A stretch of DNA of 64,000 bases from Nitrospirota bacterium. Its GTDB lineage: Bacteria; Nitrospirota; UBA9217. Where the stretch lies: the NCBI GenBank assembly GCA_035516175.1, contig DATJAO010000038.1:28427-92426 (forward strand), read 5' to 3'. Shown here piece by piece: positions 16,436 to 31,395 of this stretch. Position 1 is the first letter of the stretch. Each line of letters starts with the position of its first letter. The translations under genes and the position numbers were made by a program. Below the pieces are notes generated by a model. It made no database searches. It was given only the letters and a program-made list of their open reading frames with translations, and was not told the DNA's origin.

Positions 16436-17410
16436 ATGAAAAGAGGTTCATGGTTGACACTGGCAATCATGCTGTTGGTCTCGGTCGTGCCCATCATAGG
16501 TGGTTGCGGCCCCACGACGTCAGGAGCTGTCAAAAATGACACGACCCTGACAGATACTTCAAGGCAGCTGAAAACGACGAGCAGCGTCTCGGAATACAAA
16601 GGTCCTAAACTCCGGGTAGGCGTGGTCAATTTCCAGAACAAGACCCCTTCGAGGGTGCTGGGGATTGGAGAAGCTGCCGCCGATATTCTGGGGACCATCC
16701 TGCAGAATACCGACCGTTTCATCGTCATTCCACAGCAGGACATGGAATCCATCCTCTCGCAGCAGCGCATGGGCGCAACGGGGGCGGTCAATCCTGACAC
16801 TGCTGCCGAGATGGGAAAGGTGCTGGGACTGAATGCGATCGTGACCGGCGCAGTGACTGCCTATTCCGAAACAGAAGAAGGTTCCGATTACCTTGTGGCG
16901 AAAAGCAAGAAACAAATCGCGCGAGTCACGGTGGATTACCGCATTGTCGATACGACCACGGGAGTACAGCTCATGGCTGATTCCGGCGCGGGAATCTATT
17001 CCAAATCAGAAAGCAGGGTTCTCGGGATGGGTTCCAAAGCAGGATACGACCCCGATCTTCGCGACGGCGCCCTTCGGGACGCCCTGACCAAGGCCATGGT
17101 CAACATGATGCAAAAACTCGGCACTAAGAAGTGGAACGGTCGGATCGCCCAGATCGACGGAGACAACCTGTACATCAATGCTGGCCAGAGGTCCGGTTTG
17201 AACGTTGGGGACAAACTCAAGGTCTTCAGGACGGGCAAGGATATCATTGATCCGGTGACCAAAATGAAGCTCGGAACAACGGAAAACCTGATTGGTGAGG
17301 CGATCGTGCAACAGAATGACCTCGGTGACCAGGCCGATCTCTCCATTGCAAGGCCGACTTCTGGCACCGGTTTCAAGGCGGGAGACGTCGTTAAGCTGAG
17401 CGAGAAGTGA
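16436..17410 (+). CDS. CsgG-family outer-membrane lipoprotein with small C-terminal beta domain
   Basis: Lipobox IIGGC. KLRVGVVNFQNKT...AADILGTILQNTDRFIVIPQQDMESILSQQ...LNAIVTGAVTAYSE matches the E. coli CsgG segments IFVSVYNIQDET...ATAMLVTALKDSRWFIPLERQGLQNLLNER...ANIMVEGSIIGYES block by block. Start chosen at MKRGSWL inside track ORF 16412. Confidence 0.7.
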   Translation: MKRGSWLTLAIMLLVSVVPIIGGCGPTTSGAVKNDTTLTDTSRQLKTTSSVSEYKGPKLRVGVVNFQNKTPSRVLGIGEAAADILGTILQNTDRFIVIPQQDMESILSQQRMGATGAVNPDTAAEMGKVLGLNAIVTGAVTAYSETEEGSDYLVAKSKKQIARVTVDYRIVDTTTGVQLMADSGAGIYSKSESRVLGMGSKAGYDPDLRDGALRDALTKAMVNMMQKLGTKKWNGRIAQIDGDNLYINAGQRSGLNVGDKLKVFRTGKDIIDPVTKMKLGTTENLIGEAIVQQNDLGDQADLSIARPTSGTGFKAGDVVKLSEK

Positions 17411-17447
17411 TGGCTTATGGTGCGGGAGTGCCTGAAAGGATGATCCC

Positions 17448-18215
17448 ATGATGAAGCGCTTCATATATGGTGCCGCTGCCTTGCTCATAACGCTCTGGTG
17501 TCTCTCATTCGCGTCTGCAGCAGAAGAACCGGCGGCGAACACCGAGGCAATGGTTACCATGATCGAAGGAACCGCCCACGTCTTCACCAAGGGAGCGCCA
17601 GCCGAGATCCCACTCAAGAAAGGGAGCAAGCTCACGAGAGGACAGGAGATCAGGGTGGGAGCGAATTCCAGGATGGAAATTCGATTTCCCGATGGAACTG
17701 TTATGAGACTAGCGGAAAAATCCCGTCTGGTCATGGATGATGTGCTTTACGATAGCAAGACCGAGAACAAAAGTGTCAAAGTCAATCTCGCTGTCGGAAA
17801 ACTCTGGGCAAACGTAAAGAAGCTCGTGACCCCGGATTCTACAGTCGAGGTTAGAACCAGTAACGCCGTCGCCGGTGTGAGGGGAACCGTGTACCGGGTG
17901 AATGTGGAAGAAGATAAGAGCGCAGTGGTCAAGGTCTATGATGGAACGGTGTATGTGGCCAACCCGCCGAAAGAAGAATCGGGGAAGCCACCAAGGGAGG
18001 TTTCAGGTCCGGTTCCCGTTCCCGGGCCGCACGAGGTGCCTCCACCGTATCACGAAGTGACTATGGAGGAGTGGCAGGTGATCGTACAATCCTTCCAGCA
18101 GGTTACCATTTCACCGGAGGGTGTAGCATCGCAACCGCAGGATTTCGATCCCAAAGCTGACGCTGATGACTGGGTGAAGTGGAACCAGGAGAGGGACAAG
18201 CAAACCCGGTTTTAA
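17448..18215 (+). CDS. Secreted FecR-domain protein
   Basis: Signal peptide (LWCLSFASAA). FecR-like beta-sandwich motifs (RMEIRFPDGTVMRLAEKSRLVMD ... GVRGTVYRV). Contains neither a sigma-factor nor an anti-sigma transmembrane segment. Confidence 0.6.
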   Translation: MMKRFIYGAAALLITLWCLSFASAAEEPAANTEAMVTMIEGTAHVFTKGAPAEIPLKKGSKLTRGQEIRVGANSRMEIRFPDGTVMRLAEKSRLVMDDVLYDSKTENKSVKVNLAVGKLWANVKKLVTPDSTVEVRTSNAVAGVRGTVYRVNVEEDKSAVVKVYDGTVYVANPPKEESGKPPREVSGPVPVPGPHEVPPPYHEVTMEEWQVIVQSFQQVTISPEGVASQPQDFDPKADADDWVKWNQERDKQTRF

Positions 18216-18870: not shown

Positions 18871-20883
18871 GTGCCTATTTCGGAGGAAATGCTCATAATG
18901 AACAACCAGGATTCTGGCGACGGTGGACGCAATCGCGACTCCAGTCTTAATAAGGTTCTCTTGATCGGTAATCCGAATGTGGGCAAGAGCGCGCTCTTCG
19001 GGCTGCTTACGGGCAAATACGTTACCGTCTCGAACTATCCCGGTACCACCGTGGAAGTGACCTATGGAAACGCACTCTTGAACAAGACGCGTACCCTGGT
19101 GATCGACACGCCCGGTGTGAACAGCCTCGTACCCATGTCTGAAGACGAAAAAGTTACGAGGGACATGCTGCTTACCGACCGGGCCGGGGTCGTTGTCCAG
19201 GTGGCCGATACCAAAAACCTGCGGCGAGGGCTTCTCATTACTCTCCAGCTCTCGGAAATGGAGGTGCCATTCATCCTTGACCTCAATATGGACGATGAGG
19301 CAAAGAGCCGTGGCATTTTCATTGACCAGGAAAAACTATCCCATTTGCTCGGCATAGAAGTAGTCAAAACCGTGGCTATTCGCAGGAGCGGGATCGACAA
19401 GCTGCTGAAAGGCATTCAGCACCCACGGCCGTCCACGATCGGAGTGCGTTACGATGACGTGATCGAGGGGGGGATAAGGGACATCTCCGCTCTGCTACCG
19501 GGAGCAAACATTGCTCAACGCGCGCTTGCGCTCATGATTCTCGCTGGTGATGAAAGCCTCAAGTCTTGGCTTCACTCGAACCTGCAGGACCACGTGATCA
19601 CTGAAATTGAAAAGATACGGCAGGAAGTTCAGGCTAAATTTAATAACTCTCTTGGCTATCTCATTAACCAGCGCAGAATAAAAAAGGCTGATGAGATCCT
19701 TGCGCAGGTTATGAGCCGCCATGAAGCAGGAAAGGGATCAGCTATCTCATTTTATATCGGCAAATGGTCCATGCACCCGGTTTATGGTATCCCGATCCTT
19801 TTCGCTGTGTTGTATGCTATATATCAATTCGTCGGTGTATTCGGAGCGGGTACGGTTGTCAATTTTCTTGAAAAAACTGTATTTGGAGCATACCTCAACC
19901 CCTGGGTCACAAAGATCGTTCATTTCATTTTGCCTGTTCCGTTTTTGCAGGAGTTAATTATCGGTGACTATGGTTTGGTGACCATGGCCGTCACCTACGC
20001 GATCGCAATCGTGCTGCCGATCGTGAGCTTTTTTTTCATAGCTTTTGGTCTCCTCGAAGACTCGGGATATCTGCCGCGACTCGCAGTCATGGTAAACAAA
20101 ATTTTTAAGGTTATGGGCCTGAACGGCAAGGCTGTGCTTCCCATGATCCTCGGTCTAGGATGCGACACCATGGCAACGCTCACAACGCGTATTCTCGAAA
20201 CGAAGAAGGAGCGTCTCCTCGTAACGTTTTTGCTCGCTCTCGGCGTGCCCTGTTCCGCTCAACTTGGCGTTGTGCTTGGAATGATTTCCGGGGTCTCCGG
20301 CCTGGCAACGGTAATCTGGCTCGGGACCATGACTGGCGTTCTCCTCCTTGTTGGATATCTTGCATCGAAATTGATCCCCGGCGATCCGTCGGACTTTGTG
20401 CTCGAACTGCCGCCGATACGAATTCCACAGGTTACGAACATTCTGATCAAAACCATAGCCAGGGTACAATGGTATTTAAAAGAGGCAGTGCCGCTTTTTA
20501 TTTTGGGGACATTTATCTTGTTTGCAGCAAATAAGGTGGGTGCTCTTACGTTCATTCAAAAAATGGCTGATCCAATCGTGGTCGGCCTCTTGGGGTTGCC
20601 GAGCAAAGCCGCTGAAGCATTTGTCATAGGGTTCCTTCGCAGAGACTACGGTGCTGCAGGATTGTTTATGCTTGCAAAGCAGAACCTGCTCGATCCAATC
20701 CAGATTGTCGTGAGTCTCGTGGTGATGACACTTTTTGTGCCGTGTATTGCAAACTTCTTTATGATGGTGAAGGAACAGGGACTCAAAGCAGCTTTTTACA
20801 TGGCAGCATTCATCTTCCCTTTTGCTGTTGCTGTTGGGGCAGCGCTGAATTGGGCGCTCAGGACTTTCAGAGTCGCGTTGTGA
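18871..20883 (+). CDS. feoB: Ferrous iron transporter FeoB (G-domain plus polytopic membrane domain)
   Basis: G1 motif GNPNVGKS, DTPG, 670 aa with many TM helices and Gate motifs. A possible Fur-box-like ATGAAATGATAAGG lies just upstream. The start may be one of the downstream ATGs at 18889/18898. Confidence 0.9.
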   Translation: MPISEEMLIMNNQDSGDGGRNRDSSLNKVLLIGNPNVGKSALFGLLTGKYVTVSNYPGTTVEVTYGNALLNKTRTLVIDTPGVNSLVPMSEDEKVTRDMLLTDRAGVVVQVADTKNLRRGLLITLQLSEMEVPFILDLNMDDEAKSRGIFIDQEKLSHLLGIEVVKTVAIRRSGIDKLLKGIQHPRPSTIGVRYDDVIEGGIRDISALLPGANIAQRALALMILAGDESLKSWLHSNLQDHVITEIEKIRQEVQAKFNNSLGYLINQRRIKKADEILAQVMSRHEAGKGSAISFYIGKWSMHPVYGIPILFAVLYAIYQFVGVFGAGTVVNFLEKTVFGAYLNPWVTKIVHFILPVPFLQELIIGDYGLVTMAVTYAIAIVLPIVSFFFIAFGLLEDSGYLPRLAVMVNKIFKVMGLNGKAVLPMILGLGCDTMATLTTRILETKKERLLVTFLLALGVPCSAQLGVVLGMISGVSGLATVIWLGTMTGVLLLVGYLASKLIPGDPSDFVLELPPIRIPQVTNILIKTIARVQWYLKEAVPLFILGTFILFAANKVGALTFIQKMADPIVVGLLGLPSKAAEAFVIGFLRRDYGAAGLFMLAKQNLLDPIQIVVSLVVMTLFVPCIANFFMMVKEQGLKAAFYMAAFIFPFAVAVGAALNWALRTFRVAL

Positions 20884-21006: not shown

Positions 21007-21714
21007 ATGACTGAGAAAAAAAGATTGCTGGGGATTGAAGGCCAGGCGGGCCATCCCGCGTTGTGTGTTTTGCCGGAGATCGAAAAAGAAGATGAACTTT
21101 TTGAAATCATCTGGACTTTAAGAGAAGACGGTAAGCTGACCTTGGACCAGATCGTCCAGAGTTGTTCTATTCCGGAATGCGAAAGCATCCTTAAAGACCT
21201 GTCCAAAAACGGATGGATCGACATCAAGGGTCAGGCTGTTGAATTGCTGCCAAAAGGCGAAAAGCGCGCACGAGAACTGGTCCGGCGACATCGGCTGTCG
21301 CTTCGGATGTTCTATGATCTTTTTGCCTTGGATGGTGCAGAAGCAGAGGCGTGCAAATTCGAGCATATCCTTTCGCCGGAGGTGACCGACAGTGTCTGCA
21401 CCCTGCTTGGCCATCCGCCTAACTCTCCAGACGGCAAACCGATTCCTCGGGGGGCGTGTTGCTCCATGTTCAGACAAGAGATGAAACCGCTTGTGGCTCC
21501 GCTCGCGGACCTTGTGCCGGGAGAGCAGGCGAAGATCGTGTTCATCACTCCGGGATCGCACTCACGTCTCGACAGGCTTTCAGCTATGGGAGTTGTCCCA
21601 GGCAGCGTGGTCAAACTCCATCAGAAAAAGCCGTCGTATGTGATTCAACTCGGCGAGACCATGATTGCCGTGGACAGGGATATTACGAAAGAGATATTCG
21701 TTAAAAAGGTCTAG
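21007..21714 (+). CDS. DtxR/MntR-family metal-dependent transcriptional regulator with C-terminal SH3-like (FeoA-type) domain
   Basis: wHTH N-domain. Dimerisation/metal-site region RELVRRHRLSLRMFYDLFALDG...FEHILSPEVTDSVCTLLGHP. C-terminal FeoA/SH3-like PLADLVPGEQAKIV...MGVVPGSVVKLHQK. Confidence 0.75.
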   Translation: MTEKKRLLGIEGQAGHPALCVLPEIEKEDELFEIIWTLREDGKLTLDQIVQSCSIPECESILKDLSKNGWIDIKGQAVELLPKGEKRARELVRRHRLSLRMFYDLFALDGAEAEACKFEHILSPEVTDSVCTLLGHPPNSPDGKPIPRGACCSMFRQEMKPLVAPLADLVPGEQAKIVFITPGSHSRLDRLSAMGVVPGSVVKLHQKKPSYVIQLGETMIAVDRDITKEIFVKKV

Positions 21715-22083
21715 GCTGAATGTGAAAGGGCCGTGCGCAGTCACAAACATAACGGCAGCCTCATCAACAACAAAAACCAATGTTCTAAAAAACAAGCGAT
21801 GGTAAAAGAATATATTCATTCAGAAAACCATGCAAAATCGGTTAAAAAGTATTAAAGTTACAGGTACATTATTACGATAAGAGTAGCAGGGAATAATTTA
21901 AGTGCCGTCCGGGTAATTTCATGGATAATATTTATTCCGCCTTTTTCACGTTATAGCTAAACCCGCTGTTATAAATTTTCTAAATAAAATTTGATGTTTC
22001 ACGCTGCATCCTGAAGGCACAGCATGACGCGATAACACGGCAACCTAGGTTTTCTTTACAGTATTCCGGGAGACGTTCTTTTT

Positions 22084-23508
22084 ATGGGGAAACAACCAAC
22101 CATATTGCTTGTGGATGATGAGCTGCTGGTTTTGGATTCACTCCGCGAACTCGTTACCCGCGAAGAAAAATACAACGTGACAACCGCGGAAAACGGCAAG
22201 ATCGCGCTGGAAATGACTGCGCGGGAAGATTATGCGGTCGTCATTACCGATTTGATGCTGAAGGACATAACCGGAATCGAGCTTCTCAAGACCATAAAGT
22301 CTCAAACGCCCGAAACGCAGGTGATCATGGTCAGCGGAAAGGGGAGCATAGATTTTGCGGTCGAAGCCATGAAGATGGGAGCCTTCGATTTTCTTACCAA
22401 GCCCTATTCTCCTTCCCACCTGCTTCAGATACTGGCCAGAGCGAAGGCCTATTACGAATCTCTTGTGGAGAATAAACAGCTGAAAGGCGAAATCAGAAGA
22501 CTGAAGAAGAATTATGAGATCATCGGTACCCACCCGAAGATACAGCGGATCAGGGAGATCATCGAGAACATAGCACCCTCGGACAGCACGGTTCTGATCC
22601 AGGGAAAAAGCGGCAGTGGAAAAGAACTGGTAGCCAGGGCAATACATAACCGATCGCTTCGCGCTGAGGGGCCCTTCCAGGCAGTAAACTGTGGCGTCTT
22701 TACCGAAACGCTGATTGAAAATGAATTGTTCGGCCATGAAAAGGGCGCCTATACCGGCGCTGTTCAGCGAGCGATCGGCAGAGTAGAGGCCTCGGCCGGC
22801 GGCACCCTGTTCCTCGATGAGATCGACACCATGCCCGTCAGCTCACAGGTGAAGCTGTTGCGGGTGCTTGAGGAGCGCTCGTTTCAAAGAATAGGCGGGA
22901 CCAAACCAATTTATGTGGATTTCAGGCTGATTGCAGCCACGAATAGCGATCTCCAGGATGCTGTTACAAAGAAACTTTTCCGTGATGACCTGTACTACCG
23001 TCTCAATGTCATTACCATGACCCTCCCCGAACTCAGCGAACGACTGAGCGATATTCCTCTCCTGGTAAACTACTTCATGGAACGGTATAAAGTCAGAAGC
23101 AACGTACAGTCCATCTCCGCAGCCGCTATGGACATCCTTTTAAAATATCCGTGGCCCGGCAATGTCAGGGAACTTGTGAATGCCATCGAATATTCCATGG
23201 TCATGGCAAAGGGAACCCAGATCCTTCCGGCAGACCTGCCCGAGGCCTTGCAGGTCAGGATTTTTGAACCGCATCAGCAGGTGCGTGAATCCCTTTCGCT
23301 CAAGGAAACAGAACGAGATTTAATCGTGAGGACATTGAAAGAATGTCATGGCAACAAGCATCTCGCCGCAAAACTACTTAGAATCCCCCGTTCTACACTC
23401 TACAGCAAGATCCAGAAACATGGGATCTCGATAGACGAGGATGCTGCCATTTCTCCGACTGAGCAGGAAAAAAGTACCAGCAAATCGCCCCTTGCTGTCC
23501 AGAATTAG
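22084..23508 (+). CDS. sigma-54-dependent response regulator (NtrC family: REC + AAA+ + Fis-type HTH)
   Basis: REC (LLVDDELLVLDSL...D). sigma-54 activator core with Walker A GKSGSGKE and a GAYTGA motif where GAFTGA is expected (Phe to Tyr variant). ESELFGHEKGAYTGA. C-terminal HTH LLRIPRSTLYSKIQKHGI. Confidence 0.9.
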   Translation: MGKQPTILLVDDELLVLDSLRELVTREEKYNVTTAENGKIALEMTAREDYAVVITDLMLKDITGIELLKTIKSQTPETQVIMVSGKGSIDFAVEAMKMGAFDFLTKPYSPSHLLQILARAKAYYESLVENKQLKGEIRRLKKNYEIIGTHPKIQRIREIIENIAPSDSTVLIQGKSGSGKELVARAIHNRSLRAEGPFQAVNCGVFTETLIENELFGHEKGAYTGAVQRAIGRVEASAGGTLFLDEIDTMPVSSQVKLLRVLEERSFQRIGGTKPIYVDFRLIAATNSDLQDAVTKKLFRDDLYYRLNVITMTLPELSERLSDIPLLVNYFMERYKVRSNVQSISAAAMDILLKYPWPGNVRELVNAIEYSMVMAKGTQILPADLPEALQVRIFEPHQQVRESLSLKETERDLIVRTLKECHGNKHLAAKLLRIPRSTLYSKIQKHGISIDEDAAISPTEQEKSTSKSPLAVQN

Positions 23509-23630
23509 ACCCAAAAAAAAATAATTAAAATCAACATATTAGAGCTATTTTACTGTTAATCCATCTATTGTCCTGTCTAAAACCCGTCAAACAAATTCTA
23601 TTAACTGGTTGTTTTTAAACATATAATCGT

Positions 23631-23646
23631 CGGCATTGCTCTTGCA
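23631..23646 (+). promoter_or_regulatory. sigma-54 (-24/-12) promoter cGGCATtgctcTTGCA upstream of the che operon
   Basis: GG at 23632-33 and GC at 23644-45 with exact N10 spacing. The -12 element TTGCA is exact. About 90 nt upstream of the cheY start and directly downstream of the sigma-54 activator gene. Confidence 0.55.
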
Positions 23647-23735
23647 CCATATCATAATAAAGGTGCATGAAATTTCATGCGTCGATATTATTGAAAAATG
23701 ATTAAAAATTCATAAGACATTTAAAGCGATATGAA

Positions 23736-24173
23736 ATGGAGATGGACATGAAAACTTTACTATTGGTGGATGATGAAGTTGAGAACCTTAGATGTCTTGG
23801 AGAAATACTAAACAGGTTCGGTTACAATGTCATCGCCCAGCCGGATGCTCCATCGGCGCTTTCCGTTGCGCGTGGCGGGACCCGTGTCGATCTCGTGATA
23901 ACCGACTATAGGATGCCGGGGATGGATGGCCTGGAGTTTTTCATCCTGCTTAAGCAGATACTGCCTGCCGTCCCCGTGATCATGCTCACGGCCTATGGTG
24001 CAGTCGAAACATATTTAAAATCGCTCAGCCTGGGCATATTTGAATACGTAAATAAACCGGTTAAGGCGAAGGACCTGGGAAGGATCGTGAAAGCCGCCCT
24101 CGCTTGTTCGGAAGGCGACAATATCGCTCCCGGAAGCGAGCTGTCCCAAGAATCGCCGTTATTTAAAATATAA
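23736..24173 (+). CDS. cheY: CheY-like single-domain response regulator
   Basis: REC domain: LLLVDDEVENL, DLVITDYRMPGMDG, conserved K (NKPV). Confidence 0.85.
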   Translation: MEMDMKTLLLVDDEVENLRCLGEILNRFGYNVIAQPDAPSALSVARGGTRVDLVITDYRMPGMDGLEFFILLKQILPAVPVIMLTAYGAVETYLKSLSLGIFEYVNKPVKAKDLGRIVKAALACSEGDNIAPGSELSQESPLFKI

Positions 24174-24240
24174 GCTGATGCAACACAGCGGCACGCGGGA
24201 GCTGCCAGCGCACAAAAACAGACTTCAGAAAGGCATACTC

Positions 24241-24750
24241 ATGCAAAAGAAAGATCAATTGGTCAATTTCAGAATCGGCAGAGAATCTTTTGGCGTACCC
24301 ATCGACAACGTGCAGGAGATCGTGCGGGTACCGGAGATCACGGTGGTGCCGGAAATGCCGTCATTCGTCGAAGGCGTCATCAACCTTCGCGGCAGGATCG
24401 TTCCTATCGTGGATTTGAGTAAGCGACTTAAGATTGAAGCTGCTCCCAGGGCTAAGTCAAGCCGTGTCCTGATCGTCGAAGTGGATGACAAGATCATCGG
24501 CCTTTTGGTCGACGCGGTAAACGCTATCCTGCAGATACCACAGGAGGCCGTCGAGCCTACACCTGACATCGTTACACCGGTAGGTGCTGAGTATATCATC
24601 GGCGTAGGCAAGTTGCATGACAAACTGATCATTCTCCTCAATCTCAAAAATATTCTGAGACCTGACGAGATCAAGGGACTGGTGGAGGATGAGAGTGCTG
24701 GCGCCGCGATGGGTAGAGCATCGCGACGATCACTGGAAGTGGCGGCTTGA
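24241..24750 (+). CDS. cheW: Chemotaxis coupling protein CheW
   Basis: CheW domain: LVNFRIGRESFGVPIDNVQEI...GVINLRGRIVPIVDL...GLLVDAV. ~170 aa from the internal ATG. Confidence 0.85.
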   Translation: MQKKDQLVNFRIGRESFGVPIDNVQEIVRVPEITVVPEMPSFVEGVINLRGRIVPIVDLSKRLKIEAAPRAKSSRVLIVEVDDKIIGLLVDAVNAILQIPQEAVEPTPDIVTPVGAEYIIGVGKLHDKLIILLNLKNILRPDEIKGLVEDESAGAAMGRASRRSLEVAA

Positions 24751-24790
24751 TCTAAGGCAGAGGCCGGCTCATGATTCCTTAGAATATTTT

Positions 24791-25609
24791 ATGATACTTA
24801 CCGACGATGAATTCAGGTTATTTTCGCACCTAATTTACAACGAGAGCGGGATAACCATCAAAGACACCAAAAGGGAATTTCTCCAGGCACGGCTCCAGAA
24901 GAGGCTGCTGGTCAACAGGCTGAACAGTTACTACCGCTACTATAAGTTCGTTACAGATAAAACGCGAGGTCAGCGTGAGCTTCTCGACCTTGTAGACAGC
25001 CTTACAATCAACGAAACATCGTTCTTTAGGAACAAACCCCAGTTCGACCTCTTCACCAGTATTGTCATCCCTGAATTAAAACAAAAAAGAGCACAGCAGA
25101 AAAAGATCCGGTGCTGGAGCGCAGGCTGTTCCAAAGGACAGGAAGCATATTCTATCGCCATGAGCGTTCTTGATACGCTGGAATCTCCAGAAACCTGGGA
25201 CATCATGATCCTCGCCTCGGACATCAGCCTGCGAGTACTCGACAGCGCTCAGAAAGGGGTGTACAGCGAAAGTGAGATCGAAACTGTCCATCCAGAATAT
25301 CAGAAGGAATTCTTCGATAAGGTAAACAGTCATTATCAAGTAAAGCCGAACGTCAAAAAGTTAGTGGTCTTCGATTTCCATAATCTGAAACATGAGAACG
25401 GGGTGACCGGCCTCGACGTGATATTCTGCCGGAATGTCATGATCTATTTCGACCGCGATGAACAGAAGAGACTTGTGGAAAAATTACATAACAGCTTATC
25501 TGACGGCGGATACCTTTTTTTGGGGCCCGCCGAGGGTCTCCAAGGACTTTCAGACAAGTTTAAATTTATCTACCATAACAAAGGAGCCGTATATAAAAAA
25601 GTGCCATAA
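24791..25609 (+). CDS. cheR: Chemotaxis protein methyltransferase CheR
   Basis: N-terminal CheR helical domain (DDEFRLFSHLIYNESGI). SAM-MTase core (TSFFRN...IRCWSAGCSKGQEAYSIAM...VIFCRNVMIYFD). Confidence 0.85.
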   Translation: MILTDDEFRLFSHLIYNESGITIKDTKREFLQARLQKRLLVNRLNSYYRYYKFVTDKTRGQRELLDLVDSLTINETSFFRNKPQFDLFTSIVIPELKQKRAQQKKIRCWSAGCSKGQEAYSIAMSVLDTLESPETWDIMILASDISLRVLDSAQKGVYSESEIETVHPEYQKEFFDKVNSHYQVKPNVKKLVVFDFHNLKHENGVTGLDVIFCRNVMIYFDRDEQKRLVEKLHNSLSDGGYLFLGPAEGLQGLSDKFKFIYHNKGAVYKKVP

Positions 25610-25676
25610 AACGCTGGGAACGCAATGACGGTATCCGGTGTGCAGGGGTTGTTTTGCGGCAGAGAAGAAAGGGGCA

Positions 25677-27650
25677 ATGAGCGAATATACATTTACAGAT
25701 CGAGAGCTGAATGACCTCAAGGAAATATTTTTTACAGAGGCCTATGAGATCCTACAGTCCCTGAACCAGGAGATCCTTAATCTTGAATCGGGACATGACA
25801 GAGAAGCTTCGATGAAAACCATTCAACGCTATCTCCATACACTCAAAGGAAATTCACGTGCCCTCGGATTTACTTCATTAAACACTCTGGCCCATAAGTC
25901 CGAAGACCTGCTCAAATCGATCCAGGATACTACGATAGATATTGACAGGAGCCTCATCGATCTTCTGTTCTCAATAAGCGATACCTTGCAGTTCACTGTC
26001 GACAGCTGCCGATCAAACAAAAACGCACCGCCTGACGAGCGGCTTATGGAGCGCATTGAAAGTTACCTGAGCGCATGGGGGAGTGGCGGAAGCGCAGGGA
26101 AAGATGCAAAATCCAAATCCGAAAATAGACCGGGTGCATTGGTCTACGATATCGTCATAGGGTTCGACGGTGCCTGTGATAATAAAGCATTCGGGCTTCA
26201 GGTAATCAAGGAAAGGCTCTCTACGATGGGGGAAGTTCTCCGTGTCGAATCAAACGGAGATTCCGAACGGGTCGATTCTGCTAATCAGATCTTTATCAGC
26301 TTCGGTTCTTCGGAGCCAGCCGAGCTGATACGAGATTTGATCGCCGTTACAGGCGTTGTGAAGGAGATATCGATCAACAAGCACGAAACCGGCTCAACCA
26401 CTGAAACACAGGCGCCAGGCAGAGATACGACAGTTAAACAGGAAGCTTTACCGACACTCCGCGTTGACGCACTGCGGGTCGACAAGATTCTCAATCTCGT
26501 TGGCGAAATGGTGATCGGGCGCTCGATGATCGGACAGATCCTTTCAGAAATCGGTGAGCGTTATCAAAAGGATGATCTCGTCAAGAAACTGAGCGACGCA
26601 AACGCCTTCATGGAGAAGACACTTTCGCAGCTGCAAAAAAATGTCATGAAGATACGGATGCTGCCGATCTCCCATGTCTTCAGAAAATTTCCCCGTGTGG
26701 TCCGCGACCTCTCAGTTGAAAAAGGAAAACAAGTGGAACTCGTTATGCTGGGGGAAAAGACCGAGCTTGATAAGGGCATCATCGACGTGATCGGTGAACC
26801 GCTCATTCACCTTGTACGAAACGCCGTTGACCACGGGATTGAACCGCCTGACGAACGGGAACGGGCCGGGAAGCCGAGGACCGGGACAGTCAGTCTGCAC
26901 GCCTATCATGAGGGGAACCAGATCATGATCGACGTTAAGGACGATGGTGCCGGATTGGAACCTCAGCGGCTCAAAAAAAAGGCAATCGAAAGAGGGATCA
27001 AAAGCCGCGAAGAGATAGATCGCCTTTCTGATGAGGAGGCATTTGACCTCATATTTCTGTCCGGATTCAGCACCGCCGATGTGGTGACGGACATATCGGG
27101 CCGGGGATTCGGGATGGACATAGTTCGAACGACGGTGGAATCGCTCAAAGGGAGGATCCAAGTTCGCTCTAAACCGGGAGAGGGGACCACGTTCACGCTC
27201 AGGTTGCCGCTTACCCTTGCTATCATGCGTGCCATGTTGTTCTGGGTAGGGAAGAGACTCCTGGCTATTCCTATGTCATTGATCGAGAGAATAACCCGTG
27301 TCAAGGACAGTGATATCCAGACAGTGGCAGGAAAATATGTTCTTCGGTTCCGTGATAAGGTAATCAGCTTGATTTTCCTGAATGAATCACTGACAGCAGA
27401 CGAATGTTCTGCCGGTCAGGACCAGAAAAAGTTCGTCATTGTTGTTGGGTCCTCGGACAAGCTGTATGGATTTGTCGTTGACAGGCTGGTAGGCCAGCAA
27501 GAACTTGTGATCAAGGCCCTTGATGACTATTGGGGCACGATCAACTGCGCGTCCGGCGCCTCCATACTGGGCAGCGGACAAGTAGTACTGATCCTGGACG
27601 CGCCTGCCCTCATCATGAGAGAAACACGGCAGGAGTTTATCGGGACGTAA
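25677..27650 (+). CDS. cheA: Chemotaxis histidine kinase CheA (Hpt - dimerisation - HATPase - CheW-like domains; no recognisable P2)
   Basis: Hpt (HTLKGNSRALGF). H-kinase_dim (LRVDALRVDKILNLVGEMVI). HATPase (DHGIEPP...DDGAGL...GRGFGMDIV). C-terminal CheW-like domain. Confidence 0.9.
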   Translation: MSEYTFTDRELNDLKEIFFTEAYEILQSLNQEILNLESGHDREASMKTIQRYLHTLKGNSRALGFTSLNTLAHKSEDLLKSIQDTTIDIDRSLIDLLFSISDTLQFTVDSCRSNKNAPPDERLMERIESYLSAWGSGGSAGKDAKSKSENRPGALVYDIVIGFDGACDNKAFGLQVIKERLSTMGEVLRVESNGDSERVDSANQIFISFGSSEPAELIRDLIAVTGVVKEISINKHETGSTTETQAPGRDTTVKQEALPTLRVDALRVDKILNLVGEMVIGRSMIGQILSEIGERYQKDDLVKKLSDANAFMEKTLSQLQKNVMKIRMLPISHVFRKFPRVVRDLSVEKGKQVELVMLGEKTELDKGIIDVIGEPLIHLVRNAVDHGIEPPDERERAGKPRTGTVSLHAYHEGNQIMIDVKDDGAGLEPQRLKKKAIERGIKSREEIDRLSDEEAFDLIFLSGFSTADVVTDISGRGFGMDIVRTTVESLKGRIQVRSKPGEGTTFTLRLPLTLAIMRAMLFWVGKRLLAIPMSLIERITRVKDSDIQTVAGKYVLRFRDKVISLIFLNESLTADECSAGQDQKKFVIVVGSSDKLYGFVVDRLVGQQELVIKALDDYWGTINCASGASILGSGQVVLILDAPALIMRETRQEFIGT

Positions 27651-27725
27651 GACAGCCCAGGGCGCGAATGCGGATTCGGCTTATAGTGCGAGGCGCACCA
27701 TGCAGTAGTGCAAAAGTGAACACAT

Positions 27726-28796
27726 ATGAAAAAAATCCGGGTAATGGTTGTCGATGATTCTGCGCTCATGCGCAAACTCATCAGTGAAATACTAATGAAG
27801 GATCCTGAGCTCGAAGTGGTGAATACCGCCATGGATGGCATGTTTGCCCTTAAAAAAATACCGCTGTCAAGACCAGATGTCATAACGCTCGATCTGGACA
27901 TGCCGCGGATGGACGGCCTCACTGCGCTACGTTATATCGTGAACGATTATCAGATTCCTGTTGTCCTTGTCAGCTCACTCGCAACCGATGGCGGAAATCT
28001 CACATTCGAAGGTCTTGCGCTTGGTGCTGTAGACTTCGTCACAAAACCGAAGGACGCAATTTCGGTCCATATTCACGAGGTCGCGCGTGAGCTGGTTCTG
28101 AAAGTAAAACTTGCCAGCCGAACGACAGTAAAGAAACGATCGCGTTTAGAGGCAGCGGAACCTGTGCAGCAGCAGATATGCCAGAGCAAAAAAACATCGC
28201 TGAGGGGACCGCTGAAAAAAATAATAGCCATCGGTATTTCTACCGGGGGGCCAAATGCGATAAGCTATTTACTTCCTCAGCTACCGGAGGACATTGCCGC
28301 CGCCATCCTTATTGTTCAGCATATGCCCGAAGGATTCACCGAAATGTTCGCCACCCGGCTGGATCAGGTCTGCAAGATCCGGGTAAAAGAAGCGAAGGAA
28401 GGAGACCCGTTGGTATCAGGGACTGCTTTCATCGCTCCGGGCAATAAACACCTTAAGGTTGCCAAGATCGGCATGACTGGCGTCGCCGTAATTTCTGCAG
28501 GTCCTCCGATGAACGGGCATCGCCCGTCAGTCGACGTCCTCTTTGACTCGGTCTCACAGGAATATGGCTCCGCTACCATCGGGCTCCTCATGACGGGCAT
28601 GGGTGAAGACGGTGCGCGCGGACTCGGCTCGATTAAGGCCTCGGGAGGTTATACGATGGCACAGGATGAAGCCAGTTGCGTCGTCTTTGGAATGCCGAAG
28701 GCAGCTCTAGATAGGGGACACGTGCATGAAGTCGTTTCTCTCGATGCCATACCAAAAAGGCTGACAGCTCTTCTTAAAGAGGTGAACCTAATATGA
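27726..28796 (+). CDS. cheB: Chemotaxis response regulator protein-glutamate methylesterase CheB
   Basis: REC (IRVMVVDDSALMR...DLDMPRMDG) plus methylesterase domain (AIGISTGGP...LIVQHMPEGFT...MAQDEASCVVFGMP). Confidence 0.9.
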   Translation: MKKIRVMVVDDSALMRKLISEILMKDPELEVVNTAMDGMFALKKIPLSRPDVITLDLDMPRMDGLTALRYIVNDYQIPVVLVSSLATDGGNLTFEGLALGAVDFVTKPKDAISVHIHEVARELVLKVKLASRTTVKKRSRLEAAEPVQQQICQSKKTSLRGPLKKIIAIGISTGGPNAISYLLPQLPEDIAAAILIVQHMPEGFTEMFATRLDQVCKIRVKEAKEGDPLVSGTAFIAPGNKHLKVAKIGMTGVAVISAGPPMNGHRPSVDVLFDSVSQEYGSATIGLLMTGMGEDGARGLGSIKASGGYTMAQDEASCVVFGMPKAALDRGHVHEVVSLDAIPKRLTALLKEVNLI

Positions 28797-29176
28797 AGAC
28801 CGGCCAGAACATACCCTTTAAATTTCTTGTAGCGGACGACTCCGAATTTGCAAGAAAATCGCTCATCATGGCGCTCTCCAGAATCGGGGGCAACCTTGCA
28901 GGTGAGGCCTTTTCCGGTCAAGATGCGGTGCAGAAATATCGGTGCTTGAAACCCGATATTGTGTTCATGGACATCACCATGCCGGGAATGGAAGGCATTG
29001 ATGCCTTGGAGAGGATCCTCCAGGACGACAGCTCTGCAAAGGTCGTCATCGTTTCGTCGCTCAGTCACCGGGAGATTGTGAAGAACGCATTGAAGAAGGG
29101 CGCCAAGCATTACATTACCAAACCGATACAGATCGCGCCTCTGGCCGATATTATACAGTTCGTGCTTTCTCGATAA
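28793..29176 (+). CDS. CheY-like response regulator (second copy)
   Basis: REC domain FLVADDSEFARKSL...DIVFMDITMPGMEG...KHYITKP. 4-nt overlap with cheB. Confidence 0.8.
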   Translation: MKTGQNIPFKFLVADDSEFARKSLIMALSRIGGNLAGEAFSGQDAVQKYRCLKPDIVFMDITMPGMEGIDALERILQDDSSAKVVIVSSLSHREIVKNALKKGAKHYITKPIQIAPLADIIQFVLSR

Positions 29177-29196
29177 TAACGATACGGTACTTACTC

Positions 29197-29667
29197 ATGC
29201 GCCTTGATCATATAAACCCAATCGTCGATTCCGCAATAACGGTTCTTGCCGAGTTTACCGGATCCCCGGTGAATCGAGGGGACATGAAGCTGCGACGTCG
29301 ACCGTCGACGAGCAGGGATGTCGCCACGATCATCCGTCTTAAGGGGAACGTAGACGGCCGCATCATCATCGAGATGGACGGCAGCACGGCGCTTGCCATG
29401 GCCGGGCTTATGAACAATGACCTGTTCAGGGAACTCGACCGCCTCGCACTGGACACTCTGATGGAGCTCGCAAACATCATCGTTGCGAGGGCTGTCTCAA
29501 GCCTGAATGAACTTGAATTTGCGCTCCGTCTGGCCCCGCCGCTCATATTTACCGGGACCAACGTTTCATGTTTCAGCAGCCTGGACACCGAGACGCTCGT
29601 TGTGCCACTTCACACAAATGTCGGTGATATGAACTTGTCCCTTGCATTGAGAATGAAGACTTTGTAA
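29197..29667 (+). CDS. cheX: CheX/CheC-family CheY-P phosphatase
   Basis: 156 aa. CheX-like pattern (INPIVDSAITVLAEFTG...GNVDGRIIIEMDGSTALAMAGLMNN...LMELANIIVARAV). Confidence 0.65.
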   Translation: MRLDHINPIVDSAITVLAEFTGSPVNRGDMKLRRRPSTSRDVATIIRLKGNVDGRIIIEMDGSTALAMAGLMNNDLFRELDRLALDTLMELANIIVARAVSSLNELEFALRLAPPLIFTGTNVSCFSSLDTETLVVPLHTNVGDMNLSLALRMKTL

Positions 29668-29723
29668 CAGCATTTCGAATGATTGATTTGACAGCCAAGC
29701 TATTTTGTAGCTGAATTTAACTT

Positions 29724-30254
29724 ATGAATTGCGAATCCACAGAATTTAATCTTCAGGATGTCCTGCTTCTTATCGGTCTTAAGGAATGCACCGGTGAACT
29801 GACGCTGGAGTCAGGTAATAACATCGGACATATGCTATTTTACCGGGGGAAAATTCTCCGATCACTGTCACCGTATTCACGTGCTATCGGCGATCTGCTT
29901 GTTGAGGAGGGCCTCATTACCGAGACGGAGCTCATAGAAATACTGAAACTGCAGAAGAAGAATTCCATATCACCAATCGGTTCGCTTCTCCTCAATACCG
30001 GCAAGGTCAGCTTCGAGGTTCTTGAGGCAAGGGTTCACGAACAGATCAGACAGTCGGTGAAGGAGTTTAAAAAGTGGGAGAACATCAGCCTCAGCTTCCG
30101 CGAAAAAGACATCAAGCCGGCAGATGGGATCCACCTTATGATCCATGAATTCTTGACAGCAGAAACCCTTCAGAACGCGTTTTATTTTCTCTCGGTAGGA
30201 TGCACTCAGCAGGATCGGTCTGCTGCCTCGGCTCCGTCGACAAGCAAGTCCTGA
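29724..30254 (+). CDS. DUF4388-domain protein (chemosensory-associated; function unknown)
   Basis: N-terminal LQDVLLLIGLKECTGELTLESGNNIGHMLFYRGKIL matches the DUF4388 signature (LxDVLQ...GxLxL...GxIxFxxGxI). Last gene of the che operon. Confidence 0.5.
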   Translation: MNCESTEFNLQDVLLLIGLKECTGELTLESGNNIGHMLFYRGKILRSLSPYSRAIGDLLVEEGLITETELIEILKLQKKNSISPIGSLLLNTGKVSFEVLEARVHEQIRQSVKEFKKWENISLSFREKDIKPADGIHLMIHEFLTAETLQNAFYFLSVGCTQQDRSAASAPSTSKS

Positions 30255-30262
30255 CGTATTAT

Positions 30263-30814
30263 CTATCGACCCTTGCAGCAGAGAGTTGCCCGCAGCATCT
30301 CTCGCGCTTTGTTGAAAAGATCCAGGGATTCCTTTTTCCGGAAATCCGGATAAGTGTGTTCGAACGACAAGAACGATTTTTCTCTGGTCGAATAATGAAG
30401 TGTTACTTCGGCATAAATACCCTGGCCCTGGTAAACGCGATGAGAAAAATCCTTGGTCGATGCGAGGACGACCTTCGCCTCGGTGACATATCCGGGATCA
30501 AGGTTGATCCTGCGGCGCACAGCCTTGCCGCTTGTGAGCGAGAACCGCGCTTCAATGCTATTCGTAAGATGTTTCACGCTTGGGAGCATGCCGGGATCGA
30601 TCAATCGCTTGAAGAAAATGAACTTACGGAGGATGCCGGAACCCATCTCTTCGCGATAATAATCTGTGAAATCCCACCGTACAATTTCACTCTGATAATC
30701 GATTGGGCCGTGTTCTGCGCAGAGAAGTTGGGTGCAGGTATCGAAAAGTCCGACGTCGGGTGAAAGCATGCCTACGAACAGCTTGACGGGTATAGGGCTT
30801 TTTGGGTTTCCCAT
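30263..30814 (-). CDS. Conserved hypothetical protein (DUF4416-like), convergent to the che operon
   Basis: 183 aa ORF with good coding periodicity and no recognisable catalytic motif. The family assignment comes from memory of the GNPKSP...PVKLFVGML N-terminus. Confidence 0.4.
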   Translation of the reverse strand: MGNPKSPIPVKLFVGMLSPDVGLFDTCTQLLCAEHGPIDYQSEIVRWDFTDYYREEMGSGILRKFIFFKRLIDPGMLPSVKHLTNSIEARFSLTSGKAVRRRINLDPGYVTEAKVVLASTKDFSHRVYQGQGIYAEVTLHYSTREKSFLSFEHTYPDFRKKESLDLFNKAREMLRATLCCKGR

Positions 30815-30987
30815 ATCTCGATAGGAGCGAGATACTACTCTGTAAGATGATTGAAGCTCCCTTAATTTTTAAAATTATATCATAAAAACTGTGATGTTCG
30901 ACACCACTACCGCATCCGCGGCCGTATCACGGGATAGCCTCCAATTATGACTTGACAAGGTCGTATGGTTTGCTTATAGTTGTATAT

Positions 30988-31395
30988 ATGCAAATTACAC
31001 GTGAAGGGGATTACGGGATACGGAGTGTTCTGTATCTTGCCCGCCAGCCGTTCAAAAAAATCAGCTACGTAAACGAAATTTCTGAAGATTATAAGATCCC
31101 GCGCAGTTTTCTTGCCAAGATACTCCAAAAACTTGTCAAGGCAAAGATTGTACGGTCTTATAGGGGTGTGAAAGGCGGTTTTTCGCTCGCTAGGCAGGCC
31201 CGAGACATTTCCATGCTCGATGTCGTCGAGGCAATTGAGGGGAAACTTCAGCTAAACATCTGCATCGCCGACAAAAAGAAATGTTTATTTTCTAAACACT
31301 GCCCCAGCCACTCTGTATGGATAATGGCCCAGTCAAAAGTTATAGAAGTTCTGAAAAAAGCGAATTTCGAAGATCTTGCCAGGCAAAAGGTTTAA
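30988..31395 (+). CDS. Rrf2-family transcriptional regulator
   Basis: MQITREGDYGIRSVLYLA...ISEDYKIPRSFLAKILQKLVKAKIVRSYRGVKGGFSLAR is the Rrf2 wHTH. A C-terminal Cys cluster (CIADKKKC...CPSHS) suggests Fe-S ligation like IscR/NsrR. Confidence 0.8.
   Translation: MQITREGDYGIRSVLYLARQPFKKISYVNEISEDYKIPRSFLAKILQKLVKAKIVRSYRGVKGGFSLARQARDISMLDVVEAIEGKLQLNICIADKKKCLFSKHCPSHSVWIMAQSKVIEVLKKANFEDLARQKV

Follow-up and report, generated by a model that had tools for sequence, protein, structure and literature searches.

The Che3 system of Myxococcus xanthus, together with CrdS and CrdA, resembles the cassette family described here in that its che cluster is accompanied by genes for an NtrC-type sigma-54 activator and a classical histidine kinase (PMC3147164). 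CheA, CheW, CheB and CheR are common to Che3 and the cassette, and neither has flagellar genes nearby (Willett & Kirby 2011, PMC3147164). Che3 includes two MCPs and no CheY, and CrdA, whose phosphorylation is jointly set by a kinase and CheA3, is its demonstrated output (PMC3147164). The cassette, in contrast, has no MCP but two CheY-type receivers, CheX and a P2-bearing CheA. Since a sigma-54 promoter behind its activator gene faces the che genes, the activator is most simply regarded as a regulator of these genes and not as a target.

In Geobacter, an environmental bacterium predicted to have several sensory pathways (PMC2577667), a -24/-12 element similarly precedes a che cluster of non-E. 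coli type (Tran et al. 2008, PMC2577667). For Geobacter, the sites were predicted by PromScan in a single genome and no activator is linked to them (PMC2577667), whereas the cassette has an adjacent activator as well as an enhancer and promoter whose conservation extends to many genomes. By its component features the cassette is also close to the F1-like core of Thermotoga maritima, Bacillus and archaea. Both have a Thermotoga-type P2 (PF07194; 1u0s_A), a CheX phosphatase and a five-domain CheA without receiver fusion, and CheY2 of the cassette is most similar to the CheY proteins of T. maritima and archaea. Unlike the F1-like core, the cassette lacks CheC, CheD and CheV, has neither an MCP in the cluster nor flagellar or archaellum genes nearby, and contains an extra, non-CheY-like receiver (CheY1). 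Wsp-type pathways of Pseudomonas, which combine a che core with a REC-GGDEF output, are resembled by two sister clusters (L025 and L026) that end in a REC-GGDEF gene. The cassette itself, in contrast to Wsp, has no GGDEF gene and no CheA-REC hybrid, and possesses CheX and a canonical CheY.

The window, i.e. the whole stretch of DNA analyzed, comprises 64,000 nt (64 kb) from an uncultured Nitrospirota bacterium; all genes and sites given with coordinates below are on its plus strand. It contains a chemotaxis-type signaling gene set that is optional in related genomes and is immediately preceded by the gene for its own activator and by a conserved sigma-54 promoter. With a probability of roughly 0.7, the set is an accessory chemosensory cassette transcribed under the control of its own sigma-54 activator. 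It is a well-supported variation on known arrangements and not a new kind of system.

The activator gene (22084–23508) encodes an NtrC-family enhancer-binding response regulator with the Pfam architecture REC-AAA+(Sigma54_activat)-HTH_8. Asp56, the Walker A and B motifs and GAYTGA were identified from the sequence. GAYTGA occupies residues 221–226 of the AAA+ domain (22744–22761), in place of GAFTGA as the initial annotation had described. It is a known functional natural variant that is always present in HrpS (PMC3105312). HrpS of Pseudomonas syringae is active with this natural F-to-Y change in the sigma-54-contacting loop (PMC3105312). It lacks a receiver domain, however, and forms a hetero-hexamer with HrpR, whereas the window protein is a receiver-containing NtrC-type regulator. 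The activator scores below every NCBIfam equivalog cutoff, its best matches being AtoC, PrsR, NtrC and ZraR; the FlbD and FlgR models score lower than AtoC, PrsR and NtrC. Its dN/dS is 0.10–0.12. No histidine kinase gene adjoins the activator gene in the window genome; in most relatives a dedicated kinase gene lies directly beside it.

The -24/-12 element claimed between the activator gene and cheY was located as CGGCATTGCTCTTGCA at 23631–23646, 123 nt past the activator stop and 90 nt ahead of the first cheY1 ATG (about 120 and 90 nt had been claimed). The promoter motif GGCAT-N5-TTGCA (23632–23646) places GG at -24/-25 and GC at -12/-13, and transcription is predicted to start near 23657. 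One exact match to GGCAY-N5-TTGCW is present in the window compared to 0.49 expected, and at least one match occurred in 39 of 100 shuffled sequences. Thus, the site is not significant by itself and it is the conservation across loci that argues for a real promoter. The element is the sole exact pattern match in the window; an ad hoc matrix ranks it only sixth there.

Directly 3' of the activator ortholog, the -24/-12 core is invariant in each of the 18 distinct loci with an intact stretch. These are the 15 loci of alignment A3, among which L001–L006 were found through CheA alone, together with L027, L030 and L031, identified through proteins. In the 15 aligned loci the GGCA and TTGCA columns are invariant, whereas spacers and flanks vary. 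The promoter bases are unchanged across loci with a CheA just 57–66% identical to that of the window. A metagenome DNA scan with a composite of upstream box 2 (see below) and the -24/-12 element as query yielded 16 loci, each of them (16/16) between an activator ortholog and che genes; the composite was found before no other operon in that scan. Sister clusters carry a canonical promoter, TGGCAC-N5-TTGCT, at the equivalent position. The coupling of promoter and activator proposed initially is therefore supported: in these 18 loci the -24/-12 element, the two upstream boxes and the IHF-like sites described below form conserved islands in otherwise diverged intergenic DNA, always immediately 3' of the activator. 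It can be broken, as the promoter has been lost in L033, where activator and cheY1 are kept, and L031 keeps the promoter and cheY1 while the adjacent activator is gone.

Two candidate enhancer sites precede the promoter. Box 1, CTGTCCAGAATTAGAC (23495–23510, about -154), is of the TGT-N10-AC(A/C) type and overlaps the activator stop codon (TAG, 23506–23508). Its core is invariant in 15 distinct loci despite differing preceding codons and the absence of the stop in several of them, and sister loci carry similar CTGTTCAGAAAnTTAACA repeats. Box 1 would be bound by the activator. Box 2, CTGTCTAAAACCCGTC (23573–23588, about -76), is present in 6/6 CheA-ascertained loci holding this stretch and has no other close match within the window. 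Between the boxes lies AATCAACATATTA (WATCAANNNNTTR; 23529–23541), which matches the IHF consensus perfectly and may be bound by IHF. The corresponding AAATCA....GTTA block hardly varies in alignment A3. Box 1 and this block were not used for locus selection, yet they are invariant or nearly so. A second AT-rich IHF-like block, TAACTGGTTGTTT (YAANNNNTTGATW, one mismatch; 23602–23614), is situated between box 2 and the promoter and may likewise be functional; its TA...TG columns vary little or not at all in A3, and L004 and L005 have a perfect consensus match. Furthermore, an imperfect 38-bp palindrome (23654–23691, to which no strand is assigned) with the core GCATGAAATTTCATGC at 23665–23680 is found just downstream of the predicted start. 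It is restricted to the window, L001 and L002. Its RNA fold is not significant (z -1.5) and it has no match in Rfam; it may serve as an operator or form a 5' hairpin.

These motifs suggest the following mechanism. The NtrC-type regulator would be phosphorylated on Asp56. In relatives the likely kinase is the GAF/PAS histidine kinase encoded beside the activator, and in the window genome the corresponding kinase would have to be encoded elsewhere. The phosphorylated activator would bind both TGT-N10-ACA-like boxes, which lie at the 3' terminus of the activator gene. With the DNA bent at the IHF-like sites, it could remodel sigma-54 RNA polymerase on the promoter, and transcription would proceed through cheY1-cheW-cheR-cheA-cheB-cheY2-cheX. 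The Che proteins are a complete core that selection maintains, with a Thermotoga/archaeal flavor. An rpoN gene is not located within the 64-kb window.

The gene content given by the initial annotation (CheY, CheW, CheR, CheA, CheB, a second CheY and CheX) is borne out by Pfam for each gene. All che genes are on one strand, and from cheY1 to cheX they overlap or are separated by gaps of at most 75 nt. No terminator prediction across this region was better than chance, which together with the spacing points to a single operon. No terminator is predicted after the activator gene either, so that some read-through into the che genes is possible. CheY1 (23736–24173; probable start at ATG 23748, after GGAG) is a single-domain receiver (Pfam REC) closer to Spo0F/NtrC-type receivers than to CheY, with Spo0F and the FleR receiver as PDB neighbors. 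Its identity across clades is 74–85%, and L031 and L033 have kept it despite losing the che core. The cheW gene (24178–24750; Pfam CheW, 6e-39) has a dN/dS of 0.16. It is followed by cheR (24689–25609, with start candidates at 24689, 24695 and 24791; Pfam CheR and CheR_N). CheB (27726–28796) has the REC and methylesterase domains in Pfam and the catalytic Ser/His/Asp motifs, and passes the NCBIfam CheB subfamily cutoff (426 versus 293 bits). The start of cheY2 (28793–29176; Pfam REC) overlaps the cheB stop. CheY2 is a canonical CheY of Thermotoga/archaeal type, with CheY_Halo as best NCBIfam match and the CheY chains 4iga, 1tmy, 1u0s, 6er7 and 3hzh as best PDB matches. These are presumably motor-binding CheY proteins from T. 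maritima, an archaeon and Borrelia; the entry of 4iga names it simply as chemotaxis protein CheY. CheX (29197–29667; Pfam CheX and CheC) belongs to the CheY-P phosphatase family and matches NCBIfam CheX_Thtogales below cutoff.

The open reading frame of cheA begins at 25638, but a start at Met14 gives 100% identity to a database protein (P0001), and the gene probably extends from 25677 to 27650. According to Pfam, CheA consists of a single Hpt (His54), a divergent P2, dimerization, HATPase and CheW-like domains, without receiver fusion. The initial annotation had found no recognizable P2, a view that has to be revised. Residues 169–247 (about 26139–26384) align with PF07194 over its full length, slightly short of the threshold (E 0.07), and the ortholog P0009 passes it with 31 bits. 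The AlphaFold2 model of this stretch has a pLDDT above 90 and a β-α-β-β-α-β fold; its best PDB match is the P2 domain of T. maritima CheA (1u0s_A, TM-score 0.80 normalized to the target). CheA of the L027 lineage has no P2.

As claimed, the operon has no MCP gene: tblastn revealed no MCP signaling domain anywhere in the 64-kb window, and the same probe detects the MCP genes of sister loci with E about 1e-29. In these sister clusters (CheA 42–44% identical) the order is HK - activator - TGGCAC-N5-TTGCT - cheW - MCP - cheR - cheA - cheB - cheY - cheX - REC-GGDEF. As they keep an MCP gene between cheW and cheR, the window type has lost its in-cluster receptor, and its core would depend on chemoreceptors from genes elsewhere. 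The term receptor-less holds for the operon but not demonstrably for the pathway, since purifying selection on CheR and CheB (dN/dS about 0.11 each) implies methyl-accepting substrates encoded elsewhere.

The claimed absence of flagellar genes is also upheld. No flagellar or pilus genes were detected by Pfam in 59 of the longer ORFs between 0.4 and 60.4 kb (a scan from which a few ORFs at 50.3–51.0, 54.5–55.3 and 60.5–63.1 kb were left out), and about 30 related loci contain no motility genes. The cassette may therefore be a Che-like pathway with an alternative cellular function, other than flagellar rotation. Consistent with this, REC-GGDEF or PilZ genes stand at the end of sister clusters, the PilZ genes following an Acidobacteria cluster in which HK, REC and activator genes are divergent beside MCP-cheW-cheR-cheA-cheB-cheY-cheX, and CheY2 and CheX are lost in some lineages. 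The sister clusters point to a c-di-GMP link in the wider cluster family. On the other hand, CheY2, CheX and the P2-bearing CheA have a Thermotoga/archaeal flagellar-type flavor, and the REC fusion usual in ACF/Tfp class kinases is missing from CheA.

CheY-type receivers, the phosphatase CheX and a P2 domain for docking are hallmarks of CheY-directed signaling. The cassette contains two intact receivers of this type, CheX and P2, whereas Che3 lacks CheY. This argues against the activator being (also) an output of the Che pathway as in Che3/CrdS/CrdA, in which case CheA would phosphorylate or dephosphorylate the receiver domain of the activator and the pathway would regulate genes, acting back on its own promoter. 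Throughout the family, HK, NtrC-type regulator and che cluster are indeed laid out as in the Myxococcus system, the receiver of the window-clade activator is intact although no kinase is encoded beside it, and the confinement of composite enhancer and promoter to this locus in the metagenome scan makes a dedicated loop conceivable. However, most relatives have a dedicated kinase beside the activator and L033 keeps the activator without CheA. We consider such an output role unlikely.

An ordinary flagellar chemotaxis operon in a sigma-54 flagellar hierarchy (as with FleQ/FleR, FlrC, FlgR or FlbD), with receptors and flagellar genes elsewhere, is quite improbable. The similarity of CheY2 to the CheY chains listed above (1tmy and 1u0s included), the presence of CheX and a Thermotoga-type P2, and the single Hpt of CheA without receiver fusion, unlike typical ACF/Tfp kinases (PMC10782961), would be in line with it. 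Additionally, there are known cases of che operons without an MCP and of sigma-54 promoters in front of che clusters (Geobacter, PMC2577667). Against it stand the lack of flagellar genes in the scanned window ORFs and the related loci, the lower scores of the activator against FlbD and FlgR, an enhancer and promoter found ahead of no other operon in the metagenome scan, and the REC-GGDEF or PilZ genes closing sister clusters. Furthermore, a deletion has removed CheY2 and CheX from L002/L011 and L030 lacks both, with the rest under purifying selection.

In related genomes the gene set is whole, trimmed or absent. The same chromosomal site holds the full set, the set without cheY2/cheX, the activator and cheY1 only, cheY1 only, or nothing. 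All window ORFs are intact, and all che genes have dN/dS values of 0.11–0.26, in the same range as flanking housekeeping genes; the cassette is under purifying selection. A chance -24/-12 match or a decaying relic without current function is very improbable, as the one match versus 0.49 expected, the stepwise reduction in relatives and an L027 lineage without cheR and P2 are outweighed by promoter bases that are invariant at 57–66% CheA identity and across sister clusters and by intact ORFs selected like their neighbors.

The DUF4388 gene downstream had been counted as an operon member, which the comparison contradicts. It encodes a stand-alone PATAN (DUF4388/PatA_N) protein (29724–30254; Pfam) with a tandem MshEN-like helical motif, matching the MshE N-domain (5htl, E 5e-4) and, with 35 bits at a cutoff of 38, NF053729. 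A conserved sigma-70-like promoter, TTGACA-N17-CTGAAT (29688–29716), ends 7 nt before its ATG and the mRNA is thus probably leaderless. TTGACA-N17-(TGn)TTAAAT is kept in L001, L002, L030, L032 and L033, including loci without che genes, and L031 has TTGACT. In L030–L033 the gene occupies the equivalent site before DUF4416(-)/Rrf2, and it stays in place in genomes without che genes. Judging from this arrangement, the PATAN gene is a pre-existing resident neighbor and not a che component, and it may also be reached by read-through from the cassette.

The NtrC-type activator at 22084-23508 (plus strand) has the Pfam architecture REC - Sigma54_activat - HTH_8. A gap of 227 nt separates it from cheY1 (23736-24173, plus strand), which encodes a single-domain receiver and likely has its true start at 23748, after a GGAG. 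This gene is followed by cheW, cheR, cheA, cheB, cheY2 (a second receiver), cheX and a DUF4388 gene, all on the plus strand and either overlapping or spaced by at most 75 nt. A convergent DUF4416 gene closes the block. Pfam bears out every gene named in the initial annotation. The chemosensory core is complete, with CheW and a CheA that contains Hpt (H54 in HTLKG), dimerisation, HATPase and CheW-like domains. The catalytic motifs of CheB are present in its sequence. FecR, Fur, FeoB and DtxR-FeoA are encoded on the left flank, and Rrf2, a TPR protein, MqnA and a cation-efflux protein on the right. None of the 59 ORFs scanned (0.4-60.4 kb of the window) is a flagellar, pilus or receptor gene; the earlier statement was that the operon itself contains no flagellar genes. 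A protein with 100% identity to CheA has been annotated from a Nitrospirota MAG, and the locus is also found on ENA contig ERZ27256514:k141_3089266. An ORF of 187 aa (30200-30763, plus strand) that runs antisense to the DUF4416 gene (30263-30814, minus strand) matches no Pfam family and is almost certainly not a gene.

The -24/-12 element proposed previously is present as CGGCATTGCTCTTGCA at 23631-23646. It reads cGGCAT-N5-TTGCA, with the spacing of exactly 10 nt between the GG and GC doublets that characterises the sigma-54 pattern TGGCAC-N5-TTGCW, and it is intergenic, ahead of a gene on the same strand. It is the sole exact match to GGCAY-N5-TTGCW in the window (0.49 expected in 64 kb), and at least one such match occurs in 39 of 100 shuffles. 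A scan allowing one mismatch gives chance level (16 found, 15.6 expected), and a crude, ad hoc sigma-54 weight matrix ranks the site sixth in the window. Since the pattern alone is unremarkable, the case for a promoter rests on phylogenetic footprinting. Seven Nitrospirota loci (L001-L007) were identified by a search at the protein level with CheA. GGCAY-N5-TTGCA stands behind the activator gene in all six that cover the region; within this set the CheA identity drops to 63-66% and the surrounding intergenic DNA is no longer alignable. The element is also present in three loci reached through proteins (L027, L030 and L031).

Five islands stand out as invariant or nearly so in an alignment of 15 distinct sequences: the -24/-12 element, two boxes and two IHF-like blocks. 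Box 1, CTGTCCAGAATTAGAC (23495-23510), overlaps the stop codon of the activator gene. Its DNA sequence is retained even where the preceding codons differ and the stop codon is displaced, which argues for constraint at the DNA level. Box 2, CTGTCTAAAACCCGTC, is located at 23573-23588. Both boxes have the form TGT-N10-AC(A), which is used by HTH domains of the NtrC/NifA family, and are putative binding sites of the activator. The first IHF-like block, AATCAACATATTA (23529-23541), matches the IHF consensus perfectly; the second is found at 23602-23614. A metagenome scan for box 2 together with the promoter returned 16 loci, and in all of them the pair lies between an activator ortholog and che genes. 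Elsewhere in the window, box 2 has nothing beyond a chance-level match with three mismatches. The predicted control of the cassette by sigma-54 and the adjacent activator is strongly supported by these comparisons.

The activator has the hallmarks of the NtrC type: PF00072, PF00158 (1.4e-66) and PF02954 domains, D56, Walker A GKSGSGKE and Walker B LFLDEI. All named equivalogs of NCBIfam that were compared (NtrC, AtoC, ZraR, PrsR, FlbD, FlgR and others) score below their cutoffs, with AtoC the best at 393 versus 714 bits. An FlbD- or FlgR-like identity is not supported by these scores. The replacement of GAFTGA by GAYTGA is present as claimed (residues 221-226), but it is not a special feature. 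It is fixed in the lineage, being kept in all orthologs in which the motif region is covered except L015 (GAFTGA), and in HrpS the Y variant is likewise invariant and functional (PMC3105312). In the activators of two sister clusters (L025 3929-5338; L026 4163-5542) GAFTGA in the sigma-54-contacting loop is replaced by GAFTDA. The public gene call places the start codon of the activator 27 nt further downstream.

An imperfect palindrome of 38 bp (23654-23691, core GCATGAAATTTCATGC) lies directly downstream of the predicted sigma-54 start and is shared by no loci other than the window, L001 and L002. A repressor operator is one possibility; three regulators of the metal or redox type (Fur, DtxR and Rrf2) are encoded nearby. 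A riboswitch or attenuator in the 5' UTR is not claimed: the fold is not significantly better than that of shuffled sequence (z -1.5) and an Rfam search of 21600-31000 gave no match.

The cassette is accessory and prone to erosion. Related genomes carry the same chromosomal site, located between the Fur/FeoB/DtxR genes and PATAN (DUF4388)/DUF4416/Rrf2, in a series of states. The cassette is full in the window and L001. In L002 and L011 a deletion has joined cheY2, of which the 5' end is left, to cheX, of which the 3' end is left. This scar (L002 13148-13379; L011 6317-6548) consists of the first ~27 codons of cheY2 and the last codons of cheX and leaves a remnant ORF of ~55 codons; the remaining che genes are still under purifying selection. 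L030 retains activator-cheY1-cheW-cheR-cheA-cheB only, L033 activator-cheY1 only, with the promoter gone, L031 the promoter and cheY1 only, and L032 nothing. No gene of the cassette persists as long as cheY1, and cheY2 and cheX were lost at least twice. The dN/dS values of the activator and all che genes (0.10-0.26 for the window versus L001 and versus L002) are like those of neighboring housekeeping genes, and the cassette is maintained where it is present. No flanking repeats that would point to a mobile element were found around the cassette. In L004 an IS66-family transposase gene (15002-16309) follows shortly after cheX. The DNA downstream of cheX is different in every clade, which is consistent with a position of the cassette in a variable region.

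The DUF4388 gene (29724-30254) was initially counted as the last member of the operon. This assignment does not hold, because the gene has a promoter of its own and is present at the site in L032, where the activator and che genes are missing. The promoter, TTGACA-N17-(TGn)TTAAAT, is sigma-70-like and conserved in seven loci. About 7 nt separate its end from the ATG, which makes a leaderless mRNA probable. Promoter and gene together span 29688-30254, and the same arrangement is seen in L030-L033. In L032 the gene precedes DUF4416 (minus strand) and Rrf2 and stands behind a terminator that follows a ferritin gene. Judged by this arrangement, the gene is a resident neighbor of the cassette, with read-through from cheX possible. 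Its independence weakens any functional link between PATAN and the cassette; a PATAN output acting with CheY1 as a split PatA-type regulator was downgraded because L032 has PATAN alone with its own promoter. Residues 55-104, the 'alpha-helical insertion' of PATAN, form a tandem MshEN-like motif that falls slightly short of the NCBIfam model for this c-di-GMP-binding motif (NF053729, 35 bits with a cutoff of 38; E 5e-4 versus 5htl). Both half-motifs of the tandem RLGxxLLxxGLIxxxxLxxxLxxQ are visible, with the Arg shifted or absent. It is conceivable that such stand-alone PATAN proteins act as receptors of c-di-GMP. In Synechocystis, the pilus motor is bound by PATAN domains (bioRxiv 10.1101/2021.06.11.447907).

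CheA had been described as lacking a recognizable P2 domain. In fact, P2 is present. Residues 169-247 span the whole PF07194 model (E 0.07), and an ortholog with 67% identity (database protein P0009) passes PF07194 at 31 bits. The AlphaFold2 model of this stretch (29 homologs) is a beta-alpha-beta-beta-alpha-beta domain with pLDDT >90, and its closest PDB structure is the P2 domain of T. maritima CheA bound to CheY (1u0s_A; E 4.5e-4, TM-score 0.80, target-normalised). P2 is poorly detected by HMMER and is absent from more than half of all CheAs (PMC10782961), so its absence would not have been unusual. The locus L027 (GCA_040960995.1, 9433-11704) encodes a CheA of 567 aa without P2. It lacks cheR and retains cheB, cheY2 and cheX, which leaves a methylesterase without its methyltransferase.

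ACF systems typically have no CheC/CheX/CheZ phosphatase and usually contain a CheA-REC fusion. In the cassette, CheA has one Hpt domain and is not fused to a receiver, and a CheX is encoded. CheAs that combine several Hpt domains with a receiver are linked to the Tfp and ACF classes (PMC10782961). A Tfp class with PatA-type output is not indicated, given one Hpt domain, no receiver and a PATAN domain that is not fused to REC. The F1-like class is marked by a P2 of the Thermotoga/Bacillus type, a CheY close to that of Thermotoga or archaea, CheC/CheD/CheX auxiliaries and 44H receptors; P2, CheY2 and CheX would fit it, and CheC and CheD are absent. CheA scores alike against the structures from E. 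coli and T. maritima, and the NCBIfam models that match best are those of archaeal CheY and CheA.

A tblastn search with the Tsr signalling domain found no MCP in the window or in any locus of the window type. The same probe detected the MCP genes of L025, L026 and L029 (E ~1e-26 to 1e-29), which belong to sister clusters. The CheAs of the sister type (P0050 and P0056) are the next-closest with 42-44% identity, and the layout is PAS-kinase - activator - cheW - MCP - cheR - cheA(P2) - cheB - cheY - cheX - REC-GGDEF. The sister MCPs (L025 7012-9057; L026 6412-9087) are of the HAMP or NIT-HAMP type; one has a NIT sensor domain (nitrate/nitrite type). Insertions of 14 and 28 residues relative to E. 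coli Tsr, in the C-terminal arm of the signalling hairpin, suggest a long heptad class, the exact class being ambiguous from a BLAST alignment to Tsr. The sister activator genes are followed by the canonical promoter TGGCAC-N5-TTGCT, upstream of which CTGTTCAGAAAnTTAACA boxes similar to box 1 are repeated. In an Acidobacteria relative (CheA 38% identical), a divergent PAS-kinase/REC/activator unit adjoins MCP-cheW-cheR-cheA-cheB-cheY-cheX, followed by two PilZ genes. Judged by these arrangements, che clusters of this type have long been coupled to a kinase/activator pair and to a sigma-54 promoter. The window type has lost the MCP and GGDEF genes from the cluster, whereas cheY1 is a gain. Within the window type, one clade (L003-L006, L008, L014, L016 and L027) additionally has two GAF/PAS kinases upstream, and its promoter is separated from cheW by a REC-GAF-GAF-PAS hybrid kinase and by a degenerate receiver; the sigma-54 promoter stands before the hybrid kinase.

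The designation as receptor-less is correct for the operon, where it reflects a derived loss. It does not demonstrably extend to the pathway, since the selection acting on CheR and CheB implies the existence of methyl-accepting substrates. For the same reason, we infer that chemoreceptors for the cassette are encoded elsewhere in the genome.

The best PDB matches of CheY2 are the CheY chains 4iga, 1tmy/1u0s, 6er7 and 3hzh, which we take to be motor-binding CheYs of T. maritima, an archaeon and Borrelia. CheY1 resembles the receivers of Spo0F and NtrC. Signalling of the flagellar type would fit the CheY2 matches, the archaeal NCBIfam models, the presence of CheX and P2 and a CheA unlike typical ACF and Tfp kinases, but motility genes are absent from all of the ~30 loci, the activator does not resemble FlbD or FlgR, cheY2 and cheX are repeatedly lost and relatives carry c-di-GMP genes. 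The alternative function proposed initially is plausible but unproven. In the most far-reaching reading, the cassette would work without dedicated chemoreceptors. CheA-CheW would be part of a two-component network (with the activator, and in relatives with the hybrid kinase and extra receivers) and feed the non-CheY-like CheY1, possibly also the activator. The output would be non-flagellar, for example pili or behavior that depends on c-di-GMP, and would be reached via the adjacent PATAN/MshEN-like protein, with CheY2 and CheX as dispensable remnants. This reading is unlikely, with a probability of roughly one in eight.

The closest experimentally known system is Che3/CrdS/CrdA of M. xanthus, which combines a kinase, an NtrC-type regulator and a che cluster (PMC3147164). 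As in that system, the regulator adjoins the che cluster. Che3/CrdA, however, includes MCPs, lacks a CheY and has the regulator as its output (PMC3147164), whereas the cassette has two receivers. For Geobacter, sigma-54 promoters have been predicted upstream of che clusters (PMC2577667). There are documented precedents for che genes under sigma-54 control, for activators next to che clusters, for che operons without an MCP and for GAYTGA, and the cassette overturns no current ideas. A limited literature search found no description of this Nitrospirota cassette family. The cassette offers a clean, comparatively validated chemosensory operon that is hard-wired to its own sigma-54 activator, in a phylum with almost no genetics. 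Enhancer, bending sites and promoter, as predicted, are all readable from sequence, and the pair of promoter and activator is suited to a direct test in a heterologous host. Furthermore, the series of full, trimmed and absent cassettes is a natural experiment on dispensable Che components, with CheY2 and CheX lost first and CheY1 last. It also shows the loss of in-cluster receptors and c-di-GMP outputs.

Two observations concern the left flank. The synonymous divergence of feoB (18871-20883; dS 1.13 versus L001 and 0.85 versus L002) is three to four times that of every neighboring gene (0.16-0.42), which suggests allelic replacement or recombination at feoB. Further upstream, a cluster at 11096-18215 encodes a TPR-SLH protein, a transglutaminase-like protein, LPP20-like and GNA1162-like lipoproteins, a CsgG-like protein and FecR. 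In L024, L032 and L033 the GNA1162-like and CsgG genes are again located upstream of the iron genes, accompanied by FecR in L024 and L033; the other members fall outside these loci. The cluster may be a CsgG-type envelope or secretion module.
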